DNA from: an uncultured delta proteobacterium
GTDB taxonomy: Bacteria > Desulfobacterota > Binatia > Binatales > Binataceae
Direction: 5' to 3'
Assembly: GCA_963801665.1 (NCBI GenBank)
Contig: CAWDFL010000003.1
Coordinates: 1,757,748-1,821,747 of the forward strand
Length of the DNA: 64,000 bases
A program made the translations under genes and the position numbers. Position 1 is the first letter of the stretch. Each line of letters starts with the position of its first letter. Shown here in pieces: positions 1 through 53,573 of this stretch. The notes under the pieces were generated by a model. It did not search any database. It saw nothing but the letters and a program-made list of their open reading frames with translations, and was not told where the DNA came from.

Positions 1-680
1 CCGACTACGCCGGCGGCGGGATGCACGGTGCGATAGGAATTCTCGCGGCGTTGGTCGCGCGCACGCAGACCGGACGTGGCCAGTACGTCGATATCTCGAT
101 GATGGACGGCGCGCTGGCCCTGATGGCGCAAGCGTTTTCGACCTTCTTCGCGAGTGGCGCGATCCCAAAGCGCGGCGAGACCGCGCTCGACGGCGCGATC
201 CCGAATTACAACGTGTACGAAACCAAGGACGGCAAGATCATCACGATCGGATCGATCGAGCCGTGGTTCTTCGCTAACTTGTGCCGCGCGCTTGGCCGCG
301 AGGATCTGATCGAGCACGAATTCAGCTCGGACAAGCGCGCCGAGATTAAAAAATTCTTCACCGATTCGTTCAAAACCAAAACCCGTGACGAATGGTTCGA
401 GCTCCTGACCAAGACCGATATCTGCGTCGGCAAGATGAACACGCTTGACGAGGTTGGCAGCGATCCGCAGGTGCTCGCGCGCAAGATGATCGTCGAGCTC
501 GATGCGCCCGGCGGCCAGAAGGTCAAGCAGGTCGGAATCTCGGTCAAGCTCTCCGAAACTCCCGGCTCGATCCGCACGCTCGCACCCGCGCTCGGGCAGC
601 ATACCGACGAGGTGCTCACCGGCCTCGGGTACACGCTGGAGCAGGTCGCGAAATGGAGAGAAGAGGGCGCGGTGAAATAG
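1..680 (+). CDS. CoA transferase family III (CaiB/BaiF-like), C-terminal part; gene starts upstream of the window
   Basis: ORF 21..680 translation resembles the CaiB/BaiF family-III CoA-transferase C-terminal half and reads open to the window edge. Confidence 0.7.
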   Translation, partial: DYAGGGMHGAIGILAALVARTQTGRGQYVDISMMDGALALMAQAFSTFFASGAIPKRGETALDGAIPNYNVYETKDGKIITIGSIEPWFFANLCRALGREDLIEHEFSSDKRAEIKKFFTDSFKTKTRDEWFELLTKTDICVGKMNTLDEVGSDPQVLARKMIVELDAPGGQKVKQVGISVKLSETPGSIRTLAPALGQHTDEVLTGLGYTLEQVAKWREEGAVK

Positions 681-682
681 AA

Positions 683-818
683 ACACCAAGGCCCCAGGGC
701 GGCCACAAAGACACGAAGGCACAAAGAAAAAAGCGCCGGTTCCCTTAGGGAAGCCGACGCTTTTCTATCTTCTTAGTGTCTTGGTGTCTTAGTGGCCGCC
801 CCGGTGGCGTGGTGTTGA
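683..818. repeat. Palindromic REP/MITE-like element, copy A (about 45-bp imperfect inverted arms around a hairpin-containing core)
   Basis: left arm aacaccaaggccccagggcggccacaaagacacgaaggcacaaag; right arm cttagtgtcttggtgtcttagtggccgccccggtggcgtggtgtt is its near reverse complement; second copy at 2858..2984. Confidence 0.6.
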
Positions 819-1771
819 TTCTCTTCTATCGCCCGCTTGCGCAAACCGAACCATAGCGCGCTGCCATGATCCGCATGCACCAGATGGTACTGGCTGATGT
901 CTCCTCGATCGTCGAGGCGCTGGCTCCTCAGCGTCGGTACGTCGCCCCATCGGAAAACAGGATTGATGTCGAACCACGCGAGTATCCGCGCGAGGATCGA
1001 TCCGCCGAGCCATCGCGGTACATATCCCTCGGAGTAGCGCAACCAGATCCAGGTCCGGTCTCGATCGATCGGCGTCGCCACGACGAGCAGATGAAATTTC
1101 TCCGCCTCCTCGACGCGCGCAATGCACGGTAGCCGCAATTCCGCGCGCAGCGGGTATTCGTAGTTATACCAGCGCTTGCCGCCCTCGGGACTGAGCGTGC
1201 CGGAGATTTTCACGATATTGTTCTCGATGTGCGCGTCGAAGTTTGTAAGCCGCGCGCCCGCGCCGGGAAGCCATCGGCGATGCACGAAAGGGAAATGGAA
1301 GAAGTCGCCCATGTTCTCCATCACGCGCAGATAGGACACACCGATCTCGAAGGAGGTGCTGAATCTCGAGCCGTTCTCCCACGCCGCCGGCTCGAGCCAC
1401 GGGATTTCCTCGGATACCTCCGCGGGTTCGCCGTGCCACATCCATATGAGCCCATGCGCTTCGCGCAATGACTCGGCATGCGCTTGAAATCCAGCGGGAA
1501 TCGGCGCATCGGCGCCGTTGACCGGAATCAGCACGCACTGTCCGCGCGGATTCCATCGAAATCCGTGGTACGGGCATTCGATACATCCTTCCCGAACTCT
1601 TCCGCGCGAAAGGCTTGCAGAGCGATGCGGGCAGCGGTCGGGCAGGGCGACTGCGCCTCCGTCGAGACCGCGCCACAACACCAGGTCCTGGCCGAGGCGC
1701 CTGAGGCCGATGGGGCGCCGGGCGCCGAGTTGCGAGCTCTGGTAAATCGGATACCACTGATTTGGAATCAT
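773..1771 (-). CDS. Rieske [2Fe-2S] non-heme iron oxygenase, alpha-subunit-like (KshA/phthalate-dioxygenase-like)
   Basis: Rieske motif CPHRSASLSRG...CPYHGF; mononuclear-iron motif NMGDFFHFPFVH; ATG chosen at MIPNQWYP (1771), 5 nt after the tetR stop; last ~15 codons and the TAA lie inside the REP element. Confidence 0.85.
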   Translation of the reverse strand: MIPNQWYPIYQSSQLGARRPIGLRRLGQDLVLWRGLDGGAVALPDRCPHRSASLSRGRVREGCIECPYHGFRWNPRGQCVLIPVNGADAPIPAGFQAHAESLREAHGLIWMWHGEPAEVSEEIPWLEPAAWENGSRFSTSFEIGVSYLRVMENMGDFFHFPFVHRRWLPGAGARLTNFDAHIENNIVKISGTLSPEGGKRWYNYEYPLRAELRLPCIARVEEAEKFHLLVVATPIDRDRTWIWLRYSEGYVPRWLGGSILARILAWFDINPVFRWGDVPTLRSQRLDDRGDISQYHLVHADHGSALWFGLRKRAIEENQHHATGAATKTPRH

Positions 1772-1775
1772 CGAT

Positions 1776-2435
1776 TTACCCTTTGCTCGTAGCGCCGCCG
1801 GACGTGCTGATAATGCCGTTGCAGGCGATCTCGATCCCACGATGAATTTCCTCGCGCGCCATCGCCGCGCTCACCGCCTCATTGAGCATCCACGCGTTTA
1901 TCCATGTGAGCGCGATCGCGTACACGACCGTCGCCGCGCGCATCGGATCGAGTTCCGAGGCGATCGCGCCGCGCTGTTTAAGTTTCTCGATCAGCTCCGC
2001 CAGCACCGCGACCAGCCGTACGTCCAACTCGAACAGGCGCTGCCCGATCCGCGCCGGCTCAGCGATCGCGGCCGCAAGCAATTCGCGCCAGAGAACGCGG
2101 TCGTCGCTCATGAAGCCGTCGAACCAGATGTCAATCATCGCGATGATTGCGGCGATCGGCTCGGCCGACGGCGATGCCAGGACTCGGCGAGCGCGCGCGA
2201 CCATTTCTTCGGTCTCGCGGCGGACGATCGCGAGCAGCAGGTCGGGTTTCGAGGAGAAGTAGTTGTAGATCGTGCCGACCGCCAACCCCGCCTTTGCCGC
2301 CACGTCTTCCATAGCGGTCGCGGAGTATCCGCCGCGCGCGAACAAGCTTGTCGCGGCGCGAACGATACGCCGTTCCCGCGCAATCTTCTGCCGGTCGCGC
2401 AATCCGCGCGGCCGCGACGCCAAAGATGAAGCCAT
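1776..2435 (-). CDS. TetR/AcrR family transcriptional regulator
   Basis: N-terminal HTH (RERRIVRAATSLFARGGYSATAMEDVAAKAGLAVGTIYNYFSSKPDLL); immediately upstream of and co-oriented with the Rieske gene. Confidence 0.85.
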   Translation of the reverse strand: MASSLASRPRGLRDRQKIARERRIVRAATSLFARGGYSATAMEDVAAKAGLAVGTIYNYFSSKPDLLLAIVRRETEEMVARARRVLASPSAEPIAAIIAMIDIWFDGFMSDDRVLWRELLAAAIAEPARIGQRLFELDVRLVAVLAELIEKLKQRGAIASELDPMRAATVVYAIALTWINAWMLNEAVSAAMAREEIHRGIEIACNGIISTSGGATSKG

Positions 2436-2553
2436 TCAGGTTTTATTAACCCACCGCGGGCGAGCTAAGTCAAGAAACCTGAAGCGATTCACTTTTGCCG
2501 TACGCCTCTTGCGGTGTTTAACTCACGTTAGGTTTTTTGCCAGATTCGTTCAT

Positions 2554-2570
2554 GGCTGAACTGTTCAGCC
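2554..2570. promoter_or_regulatory. Perfect 8-1-8 palindrome ggctgaac-t-gttcagcc, candidate TetR operator
   Basis: Seen in sequence about 120 bp upstream of the tetR start at 2435; TetR operators are typically short palindromes. Confidence 0.35.
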
Positions 2571-2857
2571 TTATCGAAATGCGCCGTCCATGAGATAATC
2601 GCCACGACTGGCAGGGCGGGTGATTGGAACTTGCTACGGCGCTCGGCGCGGAGCCGGAACTTCTGCCGTCAGTCGAATGACCAACGACAGTTCCGAAACG
2701 TATTTTTTGTCCAGGTCCCGGACGGTCCGGCGGAAGGCCAAAACGAACGCACTTTCTGTCGCAAAAATCCCGATGTTTGCTGGACAATTTTCTGACAACC
2801 TGCCCAAATTCACCCAAACAAACCCACCGCATTTTTTGCGTTTTCAGCGGAATCCAC

Positions 2858-2984
2858 CGGCCACCAAGACACGAAGCCACAAAGGAAGATTCGCAATGAC
2901 GTACACTCTCTTCCCCCAAAAAAGTTCTTCTTCGTGCCTTCGTGTCTTAGTGGCCGCCTGGTGCCTTGGTGTTTTCTTTCTGCC
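2858..2984. repeat. Palindromic REP/MITE-like element, copy B (same family as 683..818)
   Basis: ccaccggccaccaagacacgaagccacaaag ... cttcgtgccttcgtgtcttagtggccgcctggtgccttggtgtt; the right arm reverse-complement is nearly identical to the copy A left arm. Confidence 0.6.
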
Positions 2985-3031
2985 TCTTTCCTTCGATTGC
3001 CGACGCCCCCGCGCCCGCTTATCATTGCCGC

Positions 3032-4351
3032 ATGCCGAATCAAGTGATGTTCATTCGCGGACCGCATGAACCAATCGCGATCGACCATGCCGAGGGCTCG
3101 TGGCTCTACACCACCGACGGCCGCAAGATCCTCGACGGCGGCGCCGGCGCGGTGGTTGTGAATATCGGCCAGGGACGCGAGGAGGTCGCCGAGATCGCCC
3201 GCCGGACGATCGCCAAGCTCGATTATATCGTGCCGGTCTGGACCTCGCCCGAGCGCGAGGCGCTGGTCGCGCGGCTCACGCGATGGACTCCGCCGGGGAT
3301 GGACCGCTTCTACTTCACCAGCGGCGGTTCCGAGGCGGTCGAGGCCGCGCTCAAGTTCGCGATCCTGCTGAACAAGGTGCGCGGCAAAGCCTCGAAGAAA
3401 AAGATCATCGGCAGGCAGTTCTCCTATCACGGCAACACGCTCGCCGCGCTTTCTGTCGGCGGCAGCGGACGCCGCGCCGACTACGAGCACGTGCTGATCG
3501 ATTGGCCGAAAATTCCGCCGTCATATTGCTACCGATGCCCGTGGGGCAAAACTTATCCCGCATGCGATCTCGAATGCGCATCCGCGCTCGAGAAAGCAAT
3601 CCTCGAAAACGGCGCCGACTCGATCGCGGCGTTTATCGCCGAGCCGATGATGGGTTCGTCGGGCGGCGTGGTCCCTCCGGTCAAGGAATACTGGCCGAAG
3701 CTGCGCGAGATCTGCGACAAGTACGACGTCCTGCTGATCGCCGACGAGGTGATGACAGGCTTCGGACGCACAGGCCGCCGCTTTGCGGTCGAGCACTGGG
3801 GCGTCACGCCCGATATTCTGGTGGGAGGCAAAGGACTCACCGGCGGCTACATGCCGATGGGGATGATCGCGGTGCGCGGCGAATTGGTCGAAGAGATCGA
3901 GCGCGCCAAAGCCGACTTCATGTTCTACACCTACAGCTCGCATCCGGTTGCGTGCGCGATCGCCGACGGCGTCCTCGCGATCATGGAGCGCGAGCATCTG
4001 GTCGAGCGCTCAGCCGAAATGGGCGCGCGCTTGGGAGCGCAGCTTCGCGAGGAGCTGTCGGGTCATCCGATGGTCGGCGATATTCGCGGCAGCGGACTTT
4101 TCTGGGGCGTCGAGCTGGTGCATGACAAGGCGACGCGCACGCCGTTCGCGCCGGAGAAGAAGGTTACCAATCGGCTGCTCGGCGCCGCGGTCCGGCGCGG
4201 ACTGTTCTTTTATCCGGCGTCCGGGATGGCGGGGAAGGCAGGCGGCGACGCGATGATGCTGACGCCGCCGTTTGTCATCAACGAGCAGGAAATGGAATTC
4301 CTGGTGCGCACCGCGCACGATGCGCTCGAAGAATTGAGGCCGCAGCTTTGA
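3032..4351 (+). CDS. Class III (omega-type) pyridoxal-phosphate aminotransferase
   Basis: Aspartate-aminotransferase-fold family III signature regions (LLIADEVMTGFGRTG, GGKGLTGGYMPMG); start placed at MPNQVMF (3032) downstream of the repeat element, earlier in-frame starts are possible. Confidence 0.8.
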   Translation: MPNQVMFIRGPHEPIAIDHAEGSWLYTTDGRKILDGGAGAVVVNIGQGREEVAEIARRTIAKLDYIVPVWTSPEREALVARLTRWTPPGMDRFYFTSGGSEAVEAALKFAILLNKVRGKASKKKIIGRQFSYHGNTLAALSVGGSGRRADYEHVLIDWPKIPPSYCYRCPWGKTYPACDLECASALEKAILENGADSIAAFIAEPMMGSSGGVVPPVKEYWPKLREICDKYDVLLIADEVMTGFGRTGRRFAVEHWGVTPDILVGGKGLTGGYMPMGMIAVRGELVEEIERAKADFMFYTYSSHPVACAIADGVLAIMEREHLVERSAEMGARLGAQLREELSGHPMVGDIRGSGLFWGVELVHDKATRTPFAPEKKVTNRLLGAAVRRGLFFYPASGMAGKAGGDAMMLTPPFVINEQEMEFLVRTAHDALEELRPQL

Positions 4352-8010: not shown

Positions 8011-8120
8011 GCTATCCCCGGATGCAGTTGCCTGATTTCTCCCCCATTGTCTGACATGGGGGAGGATTAAAGGAGGGGGTGCAGCGACTACGTTCCCGTA
8101 TCATAAGCAGACCGTTCGGT

Positions 8121-8225
8121 CGTCATTTCGAGCCCTGGGTGAGAAATCCCGGAGCGCCCATGCTCTACGCCAGCGCCACATGCAATGCCCCTCCGCCGGG
8201 ATTTCTCCCTGCGGTCGAAATGACG
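8121..8225. repeat. REP-like element of a second family (about 32-bp inverted arms, 43-nt loop)
   Basis: cgtcatttcgagccctgggtgagaaatcccgg ... ccgggatttctccctgcggtcgaaatgacg; related arms recur at 35545..35675. Confidence 0.5.
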
Positions 8226-12936: not shown

Positions 12937-13115
12937 GAGCAGCACCCTCACCCACGCGTCACGGCGATTGCTGAAAGGAGCAATCGCCGCGCCGCGTCGC
13001 CCTCTCCCGGAGGGAGAGGGTATTTCCCGATCGCGACGCGAGACATAGTGTCCGTACTGATTCCCTCTCCCTCCGGGAGAGGGTGGCGCGAAGCGGCGGG
13101 TGAGGGTGCGGCTCT
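12937..13115. repeat. Nested palindromic intergenic structure between convergent genes (probable bidirectional terminator / REP cluster)
   Basis: outer arms cagagcagcaccctcaccc / gggtgagggtgcggctctg; inner hairpins ggcgattgct-gaaagg-agcaatcgcc and two copies of ccctctccc-gga-gggagaggg. Confidence 0.55.
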
Positions 13116-31864: not shown

Positions 31865-31990
31865 CGAGCGCGTCGCGACGCGTCCCTACGAATAAATCTT
31901 CTTCGTAGGGGCGGCTCGGGAGCCGCCCGTCTTTCGCGCTGCCTGTCATCCTGAACCAGCGTCGAAGGATCTCCGCGAAGCGAGATCGAT
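31865..31990. repeat. Partial copy of the MITE-like repeat family seen at 35333..35860
   Basis: shares gacgcgtcgcgacgcgtc, cttcgtaggggcggctcgggagccgcccgtctttcgcg and ctgtcatcctgaac...cgaaggatctccgcgaagcga with the larger element. Confidence 0.45.
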
Positions 31991-32018: not shown

Positions 32019-33401
32019 CTACGCGGGCGGCACGACGACCGTCAGTGCGGCGTGAGTGGCGTCGCCGTCGACGATTGCTAGCCATTTCCCTTTCGGCGAC
32101 CAACTCAGCTCGGCGACGCCGCGCGCCTGTCCGTATGCGATTTGAAACGCGTTCTGCGCGTGCGTCGTGTAGGTGATGATCTTGCGCAGCGCGAGCGGAC
32201 TCGCCGGCTGGAAAGTCTGGATCGCCGCGTGATCGATCGCCGTCGAATAGTCCATCGTGCTCGACGCGAGCATTGGCGCCACCGTATTGAATCCGAGCTG
32301 CTTGATATTTATTTCCGGCTCGTCCGGATCAAAGATCGCGAGCTCCGCCTCTACCGGATCGAACGGACGAGTCTCGACCCTCGTGAAAGTCAGTTTCTGA
32401 TTTCCCAACGCCAGCACCGCGCCGCCGGCCGTGTATCCGGCCGCTCCGCTCGCTACGGCGATGGTTTTGTCCTGCCCGTTTGCGATGAAGTGCTCGAACA
32501 CCCCCGCGCTATTGCTCGCCGGAATCGGCTGCACGTACAGGAACGAGCTTTCGTCCACCGGGTTCCATCCGAGCACCCGTACCGGAGCGTTCGCACGCAG
32601 GCGTGTGCAGGTGGAATGACGCCGATCGATCAGCGCAGGCGGAACGCCGTCGCCTCCCGCGCTGACCGCGTAGATTCCGAGCGGGCTCCAGCTAAGCGCG
32701 CCTAGTGTGCACGGCAGCTTCATCGGTGCGACGGAAGCCGGTCCTGTCACCACCAGGATTTGGAGCCCCTCCGACGCCTTCGGCGCCGGCAGCGGCGGCA
32801 ATCCGGCGTCGGCGGGATTGGGAGGCGGAGGAGCGGGCTGATTGACGCTGGGCCGCAGCACGATTGCGATCGAGTCGCTGTTGAGCCAACTGAGGCTTGC
32901 GAGATCGTAAACTCCGTCGAAGCTGGCGACTGGATGGCCGGGTCCGGTCGCGATCAGATCGCGAATTACGATATCGAGACGATTCTGTCCGGCCGCGGCG
33001 ACGGCGAACGCCAGCGACATTCCGTTCGGACTTGGCGCGAAATCCATCAGACGACCCGGCTCAGCCGATCCCTCGCCAGTCTCGGCGCCCAGCACGCGCG
33101 AAGTCTGCCAGTCAGAGCCGCCGAATCCGAGAATCATGACGTTGCCGTTTGCCGTACCGACGACGCCGATCTCGTTGCCGTTCTCAAGCCATATCGGCGG
33201 ATATCCCGCCATCGGCGCAAATCCTTGCGGCAGATCAACCTTGGCCACCACGTGGATGCCGGCGGTGATGTTCAAGGTCGCCGTCATGTCGGTCTGAGGC
33301 ACCAGTTGTTTTTTGGGCGCCTCTTTCGTGAAGAGCGAGCATCCGCCAGCGGACACGAGTACTGCGCAGATCAGGAGGAGGATTAGGAAGGACCTGTTCA
33401 T
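32019..33401 (-). CDS. Lipoprotein, probable beta-propeller (TolB/WD40-like)
   Basis: MNRSFLILLLICAVLVSAGGCS signal peptide and lipobox; Pro-rich linker; repeated beta-strand-rich segments. The ORF-track extension upstream of 33401 is antisense to sppA and was discarded. Confidence 0.7.
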   Translation of the reverse strand: MNRSFLILLLICAVLVSAGGCSLFTKEAPKKQLVPQTDMTATLNITAGIHVVAKVDLPQGFAPMAGYPPIWLENGNEIGVVGTANGNVMILGFGGSDWQTSRVLGAETGEGSAEPGRLMDFAPSPNGMSLAFAVAAAGQNRLDIVIRDLIATGPGHPVASFDGVYDLASLSWLNSDSIAIVLRPSVNQPAPPPPNPADAGLPPLPAPKASEGLQILVVTGPASVAPMKLPCTLGALSWSPLGIYAVSAGGDGVPPALIDRRHSTCTRLRANAPVRVLGWNPVDESSFLYVQPIPASNSAGVFEHFIANGQDKTIAVASGAAGYTAGGAVLALGNQKLTFTRVETRPFDPVEAELAIFDPDEPEINIKQLGFNTVAPMLASSTMDYSTAIDHAAIQTFQPASPLALRKIITYTTHAQNAFQIAYGQARGVAELSWSPKGKWLAIVDGDATHAALTVVVPPA

Positions 33402-33455
33402 TGAAAAACGGTAGTCTAGATTGCGCGGTGCCAAAAGGCGACCGTATAGGCACTC

Positions 33456-35276
33456 ATGAAAAAATCTTTCCTGAAAGACTTGTGGATAAGCCGCGAGCTC
33501 CGGATCGCGGTCGTGGTCGCGATCCTCTGCGCAGCCGGACCTTTCGCCTGTGCCGCCGGTGACTGGAAAATTGGCGTGACGCTGATCGTCGCGGCGGGCG
33601 CGGTCGTGGTGGCGTTCTGGTTGATTGTCGTGCGGCCGGCAAAGCTGCCGCGCGACGCGGTCGTGATCCTCGAGCTCGGCGGCGCGATTCGCGAAGACTC
33701 GCGCCGCTCGCTGCGCCAGCAACTTATCGGCGGCGGCGCGCTGAGCCTGCGTCATCTGCGCTACGGGCTCGAAGCGCTCGCGACTGACACGTCGGTGCGC
33801 GCGGTTATCGTTCATATAACGGGAACCGAAACCGGACTGGCGACAGCGCATGAACTTCATCGTCTGATTCGCGCGGTCAGCAAAAGCGGCAAGCGGGTCG
33901 TCGCGCTTCTGACTGGAGACGCACCCTCGGTCCGCGACTATCTGATCGCCGCGGGCGCGAACGAGATCGTCGCGAATCCGGACGTGATGCTCACGATGCT
34001 GGGCGTGGCGATGGGAAATCCTTTCGTGAAGGGCGCGCTCGAAAAAGCAGGGGTGCGCGCGCAGACGCTGCAATGGAAAGAATACAAGGGCGCGGGTGAG
34101 ATGTTCACGCGCGACGCGATGTCGCCGGAGGTGCGCGAAAGCCTGGACGCGATTATCGGCGACTGGATGCAAATTATCGCAGGCGCGATTTCGGATTCGC
34201 GCCGAATCCCGATCGATCGCGCGCGCGAGCTGGTGAGCTCGGGGTTTATCGGAATGAAAGCGGCGCGTGCGGCGGGACTGGTCGATGGCGACGGCTATAT
34301 CGAAGATCTGCGCGCGGGTTTCGATCCCGACGGCAAGCAAAAATGCTTCGTCAAGTTCTCGCGCTATCTGCGCCACGCCACCTACGTGCGCGAGCGCGGT
34401 AATCGGCCGCAAATCGCGCTTATTGTCGGTGCGGGTCCGGTGATTTCCGGGCAAGCGCGGCCGGGCGGCGAGTACATCTCGGGTGAAACGACCTCCGAGC
34501 TGTTCGAGAAAGCCTCGCGCGAGGAATCGGTGCGCGCGATCGTGTTCCGCGTCAACTCTCCCGGCGGATCCGCGGTCGGCTCCGACATGGTGTGGCGCGC
34601 GGTGCGTGAGGCGCAGGGACGCGGCAAGCCGGTTATCGTGTCGATGGGCGACGTGGCGGGCTCGGGCGGCTACTACGTTGCGATGGGGGCGGACGCGATC
34701 GTGGCTGAGCCGGCCGCGATCACGGGTTCGATCGGAGTGGTGTTTGCGAAATTCGATCTGTCGGCGATGCTCGCGCGGCTCGGCGTCCGGTTCGATTACG
34801 CCAAGAGCGACGCCCGCAGCGACGCGATGTCCTTTGCGCGTCCGATGAGCGACGACGAGCTTGGACAGATCAACACGGCGATCGGAGAAGTGTATGGCAA
34901 CTTCACCGGCAAAGTCGCCGAGGGCCGCCGCCTGGACGCCGAACAGGCCGAGGCGCTGGCCAAGGGACGCGTGTGGAGCGGAGTTGCCGCCAAGCAGCGG
35001 GGTCTGGTTGATGAATTGGGCGGGATGGCGCGAGCGATCGAGATCGCGCGCGAGCGTGCGCATATCCCCAAGGATCAAGCGCATCAGGTCGTCAAGTACG
35101 CGCCCAGCGAAGGGTTCCTGTCGCTATGGGGATACTTCATGCCGGCAGCGGCAACCTCGTGGAGCATTGATCTGATCGCGAGCGCGCTAGGAGTCCCGTC
35201 CAGATGGGCGCCGGCGATGGCTACGCTCCTGATCCGCGGCGGCGCTCTGCTGATCTGCCCATGGCTCGAGCGGTAG
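33456..35276 (+). CDS. sppA: Signal peptide peptidase A (protease IV, S49 family, two-domain 67K type)
   Basis: Tandem S49 ClpP-fold domains, N-terminal TM anchor, Ser/Lys dyad regions (GGSAVGSD...). Confidence 0.85.
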   Translation: MKKSFLKDLWISRELRIAVVVAILCAAGPFACAAGDWKIGVTLIVAAGAVVVAFWLIVVRPAKLPRDAVVILELGGAIREDSRRSLRQQLIGGGALSLRHLRYGLEALATDTSVRAVIVHITGTETGLATAHELHRLIRAVSKSGKRVVALLTGDAPSVRDYLIAAGANEIVANPDVMLTMLGVAMGNPFVKGALEKAGVRAQTLQWKEYKGAGEMFTRDAMSPEVRESLDAIIGDWMQIIAGAISDSRRIPIDRARELVSSGFIGMKAARAAGLVDGDGYIEDLRAGFDPDGKQKCFVKFSRYLRHATYVRERGNRPQIALIVGAGPVISGQARPGGEYISGETTSELFEKASREESVRAIVFRVNSPGGSAVGSDMVWRAVREAQGRGKPVIVSMGDVAGSGGYYVAMGADAIVAEPAAITGSIGVVFAKFDLSAMLARLGVRFDYAKSDARSDAMSFARPMSDDELGQINTAIGEVYGNFTGKVAEGRRLDAEQAEALAKGRVWSGVAAKQRGLVDELGGMARAIEIARERAHIPKDQAHQVVKYAPSEGFLSLWGYFMPAAATSWSIDLIASALGVPSRWAPAMATLLIRGGALLICPWLER

Positions 35277-35332: not shown

Positions 35333-35860
35333 TTCCTGTCCGTCATCCTGAACGAAGTGAAGGATCTCCGCGAAGCGATTAGTGCGCAAAGCCCGGATTG
35401 GTTGCACTAATCGCTTCGCGGAGATCCTTCGCCTGCGGCTCAGACCTTCACGAGTCCTTCGGACCCGCCACGCGGGACGAAAGTTAGCGTATAGCAACAG
35501 GCTGCGCGAAAGACGGGCGGCTCGCGAGCCGCCCCTACGAAGACTTGTGCGGCTGTCATTCCCGCGCGTGGCTGCCGCGCGAGGAATCCCGGGCGAAGGG
35601 TTGCTGCATGTGGTGTTGGCGTCGAGCATGGCCGCTTCGGGATTTCTCGCGCAGCGCTCGAAATGACACCCGGGGCGTGGCCGAGATACGATTCGCATCG
35701 CTCCACCGAGTTTCATGGCAGGATGACGGACAGGCTCGGCCGTGTTGATCAATGATGCGCGAAAGGCGAGCGGCTCCCACGAAGAAGATCCGATTCGGAT
35801 CGAGCGAATGAATTCTCGATTTTGTAGGACGCGTCGCGACGCGTGGGTCAGGATGCTGTT
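35333..35860. repeat. Dense cluster of nested inverted repeats (MITE/REP-like) with terminal inverted repeats cctgtccgtcatcctg ... caggatgacggacagg
   Basis: TIRs at 35337 and 35722; internal palindromes gaaggatctccgcgaagcgattagtgc/gcactaatcgcttcgcggagatccttc, gggcggctcgcgagccgccc, gtcattcccgcg.../...cgaaatgac; modules shared with 31865..31990 and 8121..8225. Confidence 0.55.
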
Positions 35861-49195: not shown

Positions 49196-50338
49196 ATGGA
49201 CCTGGAACTCACCTCGCCGCAGCGCGCCGCGCGCGACACCGCACGCCGCTTCGCACGCGAAAAGCTCGAACCGATCGGGGTCGAATGCGACCGGACGCAT
49301 CAGTTCCCGAAAGCCGCGATCGACGAGCTCGGACGGCTGGGAATCCTCGGCACCTTTATCCCGGAGAATTTCGGCGGCGCCGGTCTTGACCAGGTTGCCT
49401 ACGCGCTCGTGGTCGAGGAGCTGGCCGTCGCCTGCGCTTCCACCGCCGTCATCGTCTCGGCGCATTGCTCGCTCGCGTCGTGGCCGATTTTAGGATTGGG
49501 CAGCGACAAGATGAAGGCGCAGTTCCTGCCGAAGATGGCCTCGGGCGAATGGCTCGGATGCTTCGCGCTCACGGAGCCGCAGGCCGGCTCGGACGCTGCC
49601 GGGCAGAAGACTCGCGCGATTCTCAACGGCGACAGCTACGTGATCAACGGCACCAAAAATTTCATCACCAATTCGCCGCAGGCCGGTGTCGCGATCGTGT
49701 TCGCCATGACCGCGCCGGAGAAGGGACATCACGGAATCAGCGCGTTCGCGGTCGAGACGAGCTCGCCCGGATGGGCGGTGACGCGGGTCGAAGACAAAAT
49801 GGGAATTCATGGCGCGCACTCGGCGCAGCTCAGCTTCAGCGACATGCGCGTGCCGCGCGAGAACCTGCTGATGGGCGAGGGCGAAGGCTTCAAGGTCGCG
49901 ATGAAAACCCTGGACGGCGGACGTATCGGAATCGCGGCGCAGGCGGTCGGAATCGGACGCGCGTCGCTCGAAGCGTCGCTCAAATATGCGCAGGAGCGCC
50001 AGACCTTCGGCCGTCCGATCGCGCAGCATCAGGCGATCCAGTTCAAGCTCTCCGATATGGCGCTGGCGGTGGACGCCGCCCGTTTGTTGACGCTGCGCGC
50101 GGCGGCGCTGAAGGACGCGGGTAAGCCGTGCACCAAGGAATCGGCGATGGCCAAGCTGTTCGCGGCCGAAACCGCAATGGAAGCCGCCACCCAGGCGATT
50201 CAGATTCACGGCGGCTACGGCTACACCCGCGAGTTCAAGGTCGAGCGCTATTTTCGTGATGCTAAGATCACGGAGATCTACGAGGGCACGTCGGAGATCC
50301 AGCGCCTGGTTATCGCGGGCCAGGTTCTCGGACACTGA
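49196..50338 (+). CDS. Acyl-CoA dehydrogenase (short/branched-chain type)
   Basis: ACAD fold with catalytic Glu near the C-terminus ([12 protein letters not shown]), FAD-binding regions. Confidence 0.85.
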
Positions 50339-52415: not shown

Positions 52416-53573
52416 GTGAATTTCGATCTAACCGAAGAGCAGCAGCGCATCCGCGACACGCTCGCCACGTTCGCCGAGCGCGAAATCAAGCCCTTCGCCT
52501 CGAAGTGGGACAAGGACGAAACCTTTCCACGCGAAGTGATCGAGAAACTCGGCGCGCTCGGATTCCTCGGCGTCGCGTTTCCCGAGAAATGGGGCGGCGG
52601 CGCGGCCGGCACGCTCTCTCAGGTGCTGGTGGTCGAGGGGCTCTCGCGTTACGACGCGTCGATCGGCCTGACCTGCGCCGCGCACATGTCGCTCTCGACC
52701 GGGCATATCGCGGCCTTCGCGAGCGATGAGCATCGCGACAAGTACGTCCCCGAGATGCTGGCGGCGAAGAAGCTTGGCGCGTGGTGCCTGACCGAGCCGA
52801 GCTCGGGCTCTGACGCGGCCGCGATGAAAACCCGCGCGGTTCGCACCGGCGATAATTTTCAGATCAACGGCTCGAAGATGTTCATCACCAACGGCACCGT
52901 CGGCGACGTGTACGTCGTGATGGCGGTGACCGATACGGCCAAAGGGCGCGACGGCGTGTCGGCGTTTATAGTCGATCGCGGCACGGCTGGATTATCGAAC
53001 GGAAAGAAAATCGAGAAGCTCGGCCTGCACGCCTCCGACACGGCCGAAGTAATTTTCGAGAACGTCACGATTCCTGCGCGCAATCTGATCGGAGCGCTCG
53101 GCGCGGGCTATCGGCAGACGCTCAAGATCCTCGAGGGCGGTCGTATCGGGATCGCCGGCTTCGCCGCGGGAATTGCGCGCGGCGCTTTCGAGGAAGCGCG
53201 CGCCTACGCGCTCGATCGGCGCCAATTCAACAGCCGGATCGCGGATTTCCAGGCGATCCAATGGATGTTCGCCGACATGGCGACGCGGCTCGAAGCCTCG
53301 TGGGTGCTGATTTGCCGCGCCGCCGCGCTGCGCGATGCCGGCAAGCCGTACGCGCGCGAAGCCGCGATGGCGAAGCTGTTCGCCTCGGAGACCGCGATGT
53401 GGTCAACGACCAAGTCGGTGCAGATTCACGGCGGCTACGGCTACGTGACCGATTTTCCGGTCGAGCGCTACATGCGCGACGCGAAGCTCGCCGAGATCGG
53501 CGAGGGCACCAGCGAAGTGCTGCGCATGATTATCGCCAAGTCGCTGCTGCGCGAGGGCTATCTGCCCGCGTAG
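52416..53573 (+). CDS. Acyl-CoA dehydrogenase
   Basis: ACAD fold, catalytic Glu in IGEGTSEVLRMIIA; GTG start. Confidence 0.85.
   Translation: MNFDLTEEQQRIRDTLATFAEREIKPFASKWDKDETFPREVIEKLGALGFLGVAFPEKWGGGAAGTLSQVLVVEGLSRYDASIGLTCAAHMSLSTGHIAAFASDEHRDKYVPEMLAAKKLGAWCLTEPSSGSDAAAMKTRAVRTGDNFQINGSKMFITNGTVGDVYVVMAVTDTAKGRDGVSAFIVDRGTAGLSNGKKIEKLGLHASDTAEVIFENVTIPARNLIGALGAGYRQTLKILEGGRIGIAGFAAGIARGAFEEARAYALDRRQFNSRIADFQAIQWMFADMATRLEASWVLICRAAALRDAGKPYAREAAMAKLFASETAMWSTTKSVQIHGGYGYVTDFPVERYMRDAKLAEIGEGTSEVLRMIIAKSLLREGYLPA

Follow-up and report, generated by a model that had tools for sequence, protein, structure and literature searches.

Why is a gene pair encoding a TetR-family regulator (tetR) and a Rieske [2Fe-2S] oxygenase bracketed by two palindromic elements, and what kind of DNA are these elements? 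The question is raised by one end of a 64-kb stretch from an uncultured member of the Binataceae, which was analysed as a whole (hereafter the window; coordinates without a locus prefix are window positions, and related loci carry L numbers). The closest named relatives of the window Rieske protein are Candidatus Binataceae. A sequence-only reading of the stretch had described the elements, here termed copy A and copy B, as repetitive extragenic palindrome (REP)-like or miniature inverted-repeat transposable element (MITE)-like, and had suggested a mobilised two-gene cassette or insulation by hairpins, together with a look for an IS200-like REP-associated tyrosine transposase (RAYT). Both copies are members of a family of inverted repeats, built as octamer arrays and found across phyla, in which the longer forms enclose genes of the GxxExxY family. 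The local finding is an ordinary but well-documented REP/MITE-like case, while the family-level link to GxxExxY appears to be new.

Anatomy of the two copies

The presence of two palindromic elements was borne out by a repeat finder, by pattern counts, by two profiles and by predicted folds, whereas the limits first given to them (683..818 and 2858..2984) had to be shifted to 681-816 and 2854-2973 (Table 1). Each arm begins with an outer GGCCAC cap, followed by tandem 8-nt units of the form N-AAG-R-CAC, which decay loopward into AAGAAGAAAA. All four window arms carry at least two to three tandem CAC-N-AAG-R units, with (G)GCCAC outermost, AAG loopward and an inverted partner present. Two end forms occur outside GGCCAC, namely a long one, AACACCAAGGCACCAGGC, which is itself octamer-like, and a short one, CAACC/CCACC, copy A being long/long and copy B short/long. 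As the short CAACC-type end recurs in other Binataceae copies (L017, L040, L077, L079, L114), the left arm of copy B is a variant form and no random truncation.

The arms of copy A (682-733 and 765-816) are 81% complementary over 52 nt according to the repeat finder. The near identity between the copy B right arm and the reverse complement of the copy A left arm, which the sequence-only reading had pointed out, stands as a likeness (about 90% by eye, allowing one 1-nt indel), while the ungapped repeat-finder match (2925-2977, 53 nt) is 77% complementary. The core pattern GGCCACNAAGACACGAAG (18-mer, up to three mismatches) matches the window six times, always within the four arms, where 0.11 matches are expected. 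A profile of 42 arms that flank GxxExxY genes matched only the four window arms in 64 kb (E 8.5e-6 to 4.5e-4), and so did a profile of 23 Binataceae arms from which those of the window had been excluded (E 7.7e-12 to 3e-6). The nhmmer matches to the gene-flanking and the Binataceae profile, respectively, lie at 702-726 (E 5.8e-5) and 698-731 (E 2.1e-8) in the copy A left arm, at 771-796 (E 8.5e-6) and 768-800 (E 7.3e-11) in the copy A right arm, at 2860-2885 (E 4.5e-4) and 2852-2886 (E 3e-6) in the copy B left arm, and at 2930-2954 (E 1.2e-5) and 2925-2963 (E 7.7e-12) in the copy B right arm. Because the gene-flanking profile matches exactly these four arms, the window elements can be tied to the arm/GxxExxY family.

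Folding of both copies, which had been proposed as a check, yielded stable predicted single-strand structures of -89/-90 kcal/mol for copy A (z = -11/-12) and -47/-64 kcal/mol for copy B (z = -4/-6). The loops of the window copies are 34-35 nt long and a tblastn search found no GxxExxY gene in the window, hence the window copies are gene-less derivatives. In Rfam, no real family was found on the window region, merely sub-threshold terminator-like matches, and none covered the arms in 20 related loci. An integron attC site, for which the core sites RYYYAAC ... GTTRRRY were sought, was rejected, as the ends read AAACACC...GGTGTTGATT and GTTGATT is unlike GTTRRRY. The idea that CAC-T-AAG units provide stops in all six frames was rejected as a general rule, since N can be any base. 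Likenesses to Chi, KOPS, DnaA-box, MetJ-box, cold-shock-protein and Rho sites were considered, and no test backs any of them.

Spread of the repeat across phyla

A scan for the 22-mer GGCCACNAAGACACSAAGNCAC, with one genome per species, gave more than 116 genome stretches, where about two would be expected by chance in 2 x 596 Gb (own calculation). Among the matches listed, the hosts belong to more than 10 phyla and comprise Binataceae, Acidobacteriota, Planctomycetota, Bacteroidota, Desulfobacterota, Chloroflexota, Nitrospirota, Verrucomicrobiota, Actinomycetota, Calditrichota, Cloacimonadota, a few Alphaproteobacteria and others, with Pararhodonellum marinum as the one isolate. Many matches lie at contig ends, as is usual for repeats. 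An inverted partner (at least 16 of 22 nt identical, within 300 nt) is located downstream in 56 of the 101 matches with enough flank and upstream in 7, hence the polarity of the hairpin is conserved, with GGCCAC at its base. Loops range across the family from 12 to more than 200 nt and differ in sequence.

Some arrays depart from the hairpin layout: direct tandem repeats without an inverted partner are present in L035 (235-480), L037 (1805-1910 and 2414-2496) and L027 (4119-4496), with periods of about 47, 43 and 32 nt. The 22-mer also occurs once each in six viral or proviral IMG/VR contigs (L122-L127), with no GxxExxY gene nearby. In two unrelated genomes a cobalamin riboswitch lies 25-30 nt from a hairpin element, namely in the Binataceae-like L007 (2183-2294) and in L031 from Flavihumibacter (1926-2130).

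Association of the arms with GxxExxY genes

When all open reading frames (ORFs) of at least 100 aa from the 116 repeat-bearing loci among the matches listed were clustered, the only recurrent gene enclosed by arms was one of about 130 aa, which, generic ABC ATPases aside, was also the only recurrent family. It was identified as GxxExxY (TIGR04256 / PF13366 PDDEXK_3), a protein with a PD-(D/E)XK nuclease fold and an intact D...ExK motif. In L010, L061, L074 and L105 the gene sits exactly between the left and right arms, and in L032 a 5'-truncated version does so. A different cargo is seen in L004 (1384-2184), where the arms enclose no GxxExxY gene but a homing-endonuclease-like ORF of 238 aa, which combines an AP2 domain with the HNH-like motif CVDHENH.

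The association was also examined in reverse, using 80 metagenomic loci picked solely by GxxExxY protein similarity. With a strict motif, arms in the right polarity are found on both sides in 21 of 68 usable loci, against a background of 0.12 arm 15-mers per kb, and strict-motif arms flank the gene in the family polarity 21 times versus 4. With a generic octamer motif, arms are present on at least one side in 53 of 67 usable loci and on both sides in the right polarity in 33 of 67, while control windows 550-700 nt away contain arms in 0/100 cases. Between the left arm and the GxxExxY start codon lie 1-30 nt, and the right arm follows shortly after the stop. Loci without CAC.AAG arms bear variant arrays (CGC.AAG, CAC.GAG, CGC.GAG or CAC.AAA), and the same arm-gene layout is found in isolates of Gemmatirosa (CGCAGAG units), Bernardetia (CACAGAG) and Sphingomonas (CGCGAAG). 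On plasmid NZ_CP155749 of Sphingomonas parapaucimobilis (L210, 482837-483265), the GxxExxY gene interrupts a normally contiguous fatty-acid operon, where 33 and 2 nt separate it from its neighbours fabD and fabG.

In 46 of 63 loci the arm variant is the same as at the locus with the nearest GxxExxY protein, whereas permutations gave a mean of 22.5 and a maximum of 36, and none of 2000 GC-binned permutations reached the observed agreement. CAC.AAG arms themselves occur in loci of 31-67% GC. Arm type thus tracks GxxExxY phylogeny and not GC, so that gene and arms are inherited or evolve as a unit. No relative of GxxExxY was found by sequence in the PDB. PDDEXK_3 is listed in a survey as a family of unknown function with multiple horizontal transfers (PMC3424549). 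In the searchable literature, which is incomplete, no description of the GxxExxY-repeat association was found; GxxExxY, TIGR04256 and PDDEXK_3 appear there as passing mentions, and the arm 15-mers returned nothing relevant.

Sequence constraint on the arms

In 93 CCAC-anchored hairpins, 31% of the free positions (N, R) are complementary in register, as compared with 28% for random pairs and 41% out of register. Because N and R do not co-vary between the arms, the triplets are constrained as sequence and pairing is not what keeps them; a purely structural reading of the arms as an RNA stem was set aside on the same ground.

Presence and absence at orthologous sites

Further copies, which the sequence-only reading had proposed to look for, are present in related Binataceae genomes, where many copies of the same element share the same layout in metagenome-assembled genomes and sites are polymorphic. 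The copy A site is empty in L120, L121 and L213, and that of copy B in L213 and L120. Copy A is kept at the same site in L117/L114, with nearly all CAC and AAG triplets retained and 7 of 8 free positions (N, R) changed; in the Rieske gene, the window and L117 agree at 66.5% of third-codon positions. This in-place retention of the triplets fits either triplet constraint or a turnover of units by slippage or conversion. Copy A is hence an old resident, retained vertically in a relative with an 84% identical Rieske protein. Copy B, by comparison with an orthologous empty site, is an insertion: in the tetR-aminotransferase spacer the flanks are conserved with L213, while about 150 nt, including copy B, are found in the window only. 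A pyrimidine-rich stretch beside copy B is absent from the empty site as well and probably arrived together with it, and may represent degenerate outer units. The ATTG...TATCAT motif of the aminotransferase promoter is also kept in L120, L121 and L213. An exact search with the TetR protein of the window gave only a contig of 1.2 kb, and the aminotransferase had no entry.

An element-derived end of the Rieske gene

The copy A right arm had been credited with the stop codon and about 15 last codons of the Rieske gene, and these proved to be 14 codons and the TAA at 773-816. In an alignment of 19 homologues, similarity extends through ...FGLRKRAIE(E) and is followed by about 15-20 non-conserved residues at a similar total length. 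The only aligned homologue with a like tail (...KAATKTLRH) is P0001, which is 84% identical and has copy A in the corresponding position of its locus (L117, L118, L114). The loci L120, L121 and L213, with Rieske proteins 68-74% identical, lack the element and have different tails, with spacers of 48, 7 and 35 nt. An ancestral origin of the tail, which would have spoken against the earlier claim, is therefore contradicted by the alignment, as homology with element-free orthologues stops at ...RKRAIE(E), these orthologues carry unrelated tails and the element-bearing P0001 shares that of the window. The Rieske tail is thus element-derived, and the element did rewrite the gene end. The tail that it replaced was of the same length and already variable, so that no effect on function need be assumed.

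The copy A core and the position of copies near gene ends

The core of copy A resembles an intrinsic terminator on both strands, as judged from its sequence: the stem at 733-760 is followed by TTTTCTATCTTCTT on the plus strand and by TTTTTTCTTTG on the minus strand, which gives a U-tract each way. A homologous inner hairpin of differing sequence is present in 10 Binataceae copies, where 10 of its 13 pairs show compensatory changes. At least 10 of 18 Binataceae copies start no more than 18 nt from a stop codon, according to gene calls aware of the GC content at third codon positions, which missed some genes, among them the Rieske gene. If the core does terminate transcription, the 3' arm of copy A would remain untranscribed, so that any action of the arms is probably on DNA or confined to read-through RNA.

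Interpretation and rival explanations

The reading that we favour, and consider probable with moderate confidence, is that copies A and B are non-autonomous, gene-less members of a dispersed octamer-array family, that their arms are probably recognised by GxxExxY in trans, and that copy A functions as a terminator. Arms capped by an outer (G)GCCAC tightly enclose, in the same polarity, the GxxExxY gene of about 130 aa in many phyla, and such a layout would be REPIN/RAYT-like (REPINs being REP doublets that form hairpins) or akin to that of MITEs and insertion sequences (IS), with gene-carrying units next to many short hairpin derivatives. The Binataceae short form would have gained the outer extension; its loop is usually a GC-rich hairpin between A- and T-runs, it lies mostly 0-18 nt after stops, and the window copies may have been co-opted as 3'-end punctuation. 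Copy A could thereby end transcription of the convergent CoA-transferase and Rieske genes from both sides, as an intrinsic terminator, or stabilise their transcripts at the 3' end, while no role is assigned to copy B, which would have inserted between two divergent promoters. The arms are presumably recognised in a sequence-specific manner, most plausibly by the GxxExxY nuclease in trans, which would explain both their spread and the conservation of the CAC/AAG triplets; we infer that the copies have moved and that GxxExxY acts on the arms. A wider proposal can be made only tentatively, and we regard it as possible but rather doubtful: hairpins and GxxExxY would form an undescribed class of selfish or domesticated elements in more than 10 phyla, in which a minimal PD-(D/E)XK nuclease recognises CAC-N-AAG-R arrays, which border its own gene and also form many gene-less hairpins, and mobilises or maintains the latter.

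Several observations weigh against the favoured reading. A GxxExxY gene was found neither in the window nor in 188 kb of sequence from Binataceae, which leaves a partner acting in trans unproven for this lineage. The query to which the 80 loci of the reverse search are the best matches is flanked by arms itself, and the co-variation of arms and protein is equally expected from simple co-inheritance of a linked unit. The conservation of the triplets in place could be explained by slippage or gene conversion among tandem units, without selection. At copy B no clear target-site duplication was found in the comparison of the window with L213 (relatives being about 74% identical at the protein level), and copy A replaces about 100 nt instead of forming a clean insertion. 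As regards termination, which is predicted from sequence, a simple terminator scan gave one partial match, not above chance expectation, and across phyla the repeats are not restricted to gene 3' ends (12 divergent, 9 convergent and 41 tandem contexts, from crude long-ORF calls that were treated as weak).

Two alternatives appear unlikely to us. In one, the elements are host-evolved punctuation, either terminators or insulators or arrays for a host protein (nucleoid-associated or single-strand-binding), and GxxExxY genes merely land in these sites or borrow them. Binataceae copies directly after stop codons with a covarying terminator-like core, the triplets kept at the orthologous copy A and the 188 kb of Binataceae sequence in which no GxxExxY gene was found are in keeping with this view, whereas it is at odds with a single 7-of-8-nt motif shared across more than 10 phyla and genomes of 31-67% GC, with arm variants that track GxxExxY phylogeny, with arms within a few nt of GxxExxY starts and stops but in none of the 100 control windows, and with sites that are polymorphic between close relatives. 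The other, which seems to us no more probable, places the module at the RNA level: fold-back of the transcript would hide the GxxExxY start or mark the RNA for RNase III, in the manner of hok mRNA, which is inhibited by fold-back, or of intervening sequences excised from rRNA, and gene-less copies would be decayed remnants that stabilise or terminate neighbouring mRNAs. The close fit of the left arm before the start codon (1-30 nt) and of the right arm after the stop, the truncated gene of L032 as a plausible decay intermediate and the very stable predicted folds of copy A are consistent with it; yet the free positions of the octamers show no covariation, structure alone leaves the cross-phylum conservation of the triplet sequence unexplained, and a working core terminator in Binataceae copies would halt transcription before the 3' arm, so that the long stem would form solely in read-through RNA.

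Two further explanations, both raised by the sequence-only reading, can be regarded as very improbable. Classical REPs or REPINs mobilised by a RAYT (an IS200-like Y1 transposase) share with the elements a general likeness, as short imperfect extragenic palindromes beside stop codons, but the ORF clusters from the 116 listed loci contain no Y1 family and no recurrent Y1-type gene lies near these loci, the recurrent flanked gene being GxxExxY instead; moreover, the arms are octamer arrays, unlike the single 20-40-nt hairpin with a conserved 5' tetranucleotide, and the sequence is common to many phyla, unlike species-specific REPs. The notion of a composite element, in which both copies act as ends that mobilised the tetR-Rieske pair, is prompted by copies that flank the pair on both sides and by different neighbours of the pair in L212 and L213. 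Against it, relatives keep the Rieske gene in the CoA-transferase/aminotransferase neighbourhood without elements: the order aminotransferase / tetR-Rieske / CoA-transferase is element-free in L120, the Rieske gene of L121 keeps its place with both tetR and the elements missing, and the pair of L213 is element-free with a different downstream neighbour. Copies A and B also differ in end type, copy A is shared as an old resident by L117/L114, copy B lies 418 nt from tetR beside the aminotransferase promoter, and a third copy is located upstream of the CoA-transferase gene in L114, as generic intergenic punctuation would be. The copies thus behave as intergenic punctuation rather than as composite-transposon ends. 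In L212, the pair (with a 4-nt gene overlap) is surrounded by YCII, PMSR and ABC transporter genes, and in L213 VirJ replaces the CoA-transferase; as the pair is next to different genes in these two loci, it moved independently of the hairpins.

Relation to known systems and significance

REPs have known roles in termination and in the protection of mRNA 3' ends; they are species-specific, RAYT genes are flanked by inverted repeats, and the repeat variant goes with the protein lineage. The window elements resemble REP/REPIN-RAYT systems (REPs and bacterial interspersed mosaic elements of E. coli, REPINs of Pseudomonas) in being multi-copy, short, imperfect extragenic palindromes, often located after stops or between convergent genes, and in being associated with a single-copy-type gene that is flanked by inverted repeats, repeat variant and protein lineage going together. 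In contrast to these systems, the flanked gene encodes the PD-(D/E)XK-fold protein GxxExxY and no HUH/Y1 transposase, each arm is built from repeated 8-nt units in which two positions are free, one motif is common to more than 10 phyla at 31-67% GC, and the outer cap is (G)GCCAC, without a GTAG-like 5' tetranucleotide and without lineage specificity.

Rickettsia palindromic elements (RPEs) insert in frame, and Correia elements alter gene ends and carry terminators. With MITEs (Correia elements of Neisseria, ERIC, RUP, Nezha) and RPEs the window elements share terminal inverted repeats around a short variable core, polymorphism of presence and absence, and effects on neighbouring genes that include the supply of coding sequence. 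Here, however, no clear target-site duplication was seen at copy B and the terminal inverted repeats are tandem octamers, and, unlike in MITEs, the larger relatives with the same arms carry a nuclease-fold gene of about 130 aa, GxxExxY being no known transposase. Intrinsic bidirectional terminators are like the copy A core in that a GC-rich stem-loop set between an A-run and a T-run lies between convergent genes, but the core is wrapped in arms of 50 nt that are conserved in sequence, which termination does not require and which would be situated past the point where it occurs. A small ORF that is tightly bracketed by complementary 5' and 3' segments is also known from 23S rRNA intervening sequences and hok-type fold-back mRNAs, whereas the loci described here are intergenic in the cases examined and their arms are conserved in sequence over structure. 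Proteins of the GxxExxY family (TIGR04256 / PDDEXK_3) are the products of those relatives of the window elements that carry a gene.

Locally, the elements explain the lineage-specific Rieske tail, the probable place of termination of the convergent genes and the shortness of short-read contigs at this site. Conservation of the same 6 of 8 bases per unit across 31-67% GC and many phyla is unusual for REP- or MITE-like DNA, and the tight association of arms and GxxExxY genes, which co-vary, provides a testable hypothesis for a very large family of unknown function. If true, it would amount to a REPIN/RAYT-like partnership built on a different enzyme and to the first proposed substrate for GxxExxY (TIGR04256/PF13366). 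The gene-less copies would matter for annotation, since translation of their arms yields gene ends that are spurious or chimeric, and likewise for the assembly of metagenomes.

Locus map, candidate operators and other repeats

Table 1. Features of the locus, given as window positions with strand and basis
Feature	Position	Strand	Basis or remark
Family-III CoA-transferase gene, 3' part	21..680	+	Pfam PF02515; TAG stop 678-680 abuts copy A; convergent with Rieske gene
Copy A, complete palindromic element	681..816		Fills the entire gap from CoA-transferase stop to Rieske 3' end
Copy A left arm: long end form AAACACCAAGGCCCCAGGGC, GGCCAC (701-706), octamers A-AAGACAC, G-AAGGCAC, A-AAGAAAA	681..730	+	Sequence; nhmmer
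Copy A core: A-run, GC-rich stem-loop 733-760 (GCGCCGGTTCCC-TTA-GGGAAGCCGACGC), T-run	725..764		Predicted fold
Copy A right arm: AACACCACGCCACCGGGGC-GGCCAC-T-AAGACAC-C-AAGACAC-T-AAGAAG	765..816	-	Repeat finder; nhmmer
Last 14 Rieske codons (QHHATGAATKTPRH) and TAA stop, encoded by copy A right arm	773..816	-	Sequence and homologue alignment
Rieske [2Fe-2S] oxygenase gene, 332 aa, ATG 1769-1771, TAA 773-775	773..1771	-	Pfam PF00355; homologues
TetR-family regulator gene (tetR)	1776..2435	-	Pfam PF00440
Candidate TetR operator 2, TGAAT-GGC-TTCA, overlaps tetR start	2426..2439	-	Kept in L117, L120, L212, L213
Candidate TetR operator 1, GTGAATCGCTTCAG, just upstream of tetR -35 (TTGACT)	2479..2492	-	Equivalent palindrome in L117, L120, L213
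Perfect 8-1-8 palindrome GGCTGAAC-T-GTTCAGCC, about 120 nt upstream of tetR start	2554..2570		Exact, unique in window
Copy B, complete element, between divergent tetR and aminotransferase promoters	2854..2973		Insertion vs empty site in L213
Copy B left arm, short end form: CCACC-GGCCAC(2859-2864)-C-AAGACAC-G-AAGCCAC-A-AAGGAAGA	2854..2889	+	nhmmer
Copy B right arm, long end form: AACACCAAGGCACCAGGC-GGCCAC-T-AAGACAC-G-AAGGCAC-G-AAGAAGAAC	2924..2973	-	nhmmer
Pyrimidine-rich stretch ttctttctgcctctttccttcg beside copy B	2974..2995		Missing from L213 empty site in alignment
Promoter-like TTGCCG-17-TATCAT of aminotransferase gene, 20 nt from copy B	2997..3025	+	Sequence; motif kept in L120, L121, L213
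Class-III aminotransferase gene	3032..4351	+	Pfam PF00202

The 8-1-8 palindrome upstream of tetR, which had been proposed as a candidate TetR operator, is exact and unique in the window, and its role as an operator is plausible without being exclusive. It is kept upstream of tetR in L213 and L211 and absent in L120 and L212, and it is rivalled by two TGAAT-N4-TTCA sites that bracket the tetR promoter, equivalents of both of which are found in L117, L120 and L213, with only the start-proximal one in L212. All three candidate sites share TGAA...TTCA half-sites with a spacing of 3 or 4 nt. On sequence grounds, the two promoter-proximal sites are the likelier TetR operators, and the 8-1-8 palindrome is a reasonable candidate for an auxiliary one. 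The short-read contigs L117, L119 and L211, from different runs, start at or within about 15 nt of the palindrome, which suggests an assembly break or sequence variation there.

Elsewhere in the window, another inverted-repeat family (31900-31983 and 35359-35572) brackets a 1021-aa ORF (32019-35084, minus strand), with arms of 47 nt (96%) and 33 nt (85%) and a perfect 27-nt hairpin at 35359-35430, and a 98-nt inverted match of 78% links 8117-8214 to 35575-35672. A palindromic element at 12985-13098 has 39-nt arms that are 87% complementary, each arm being a hairpin on CCCTCTCCC-GGAG-GGAGAGGG. Finally, a 104-nt direct repeat of 72% identity (49568-49671 and 52788-52891, 3.2 kb apart) is probably paralogous coding sequence.

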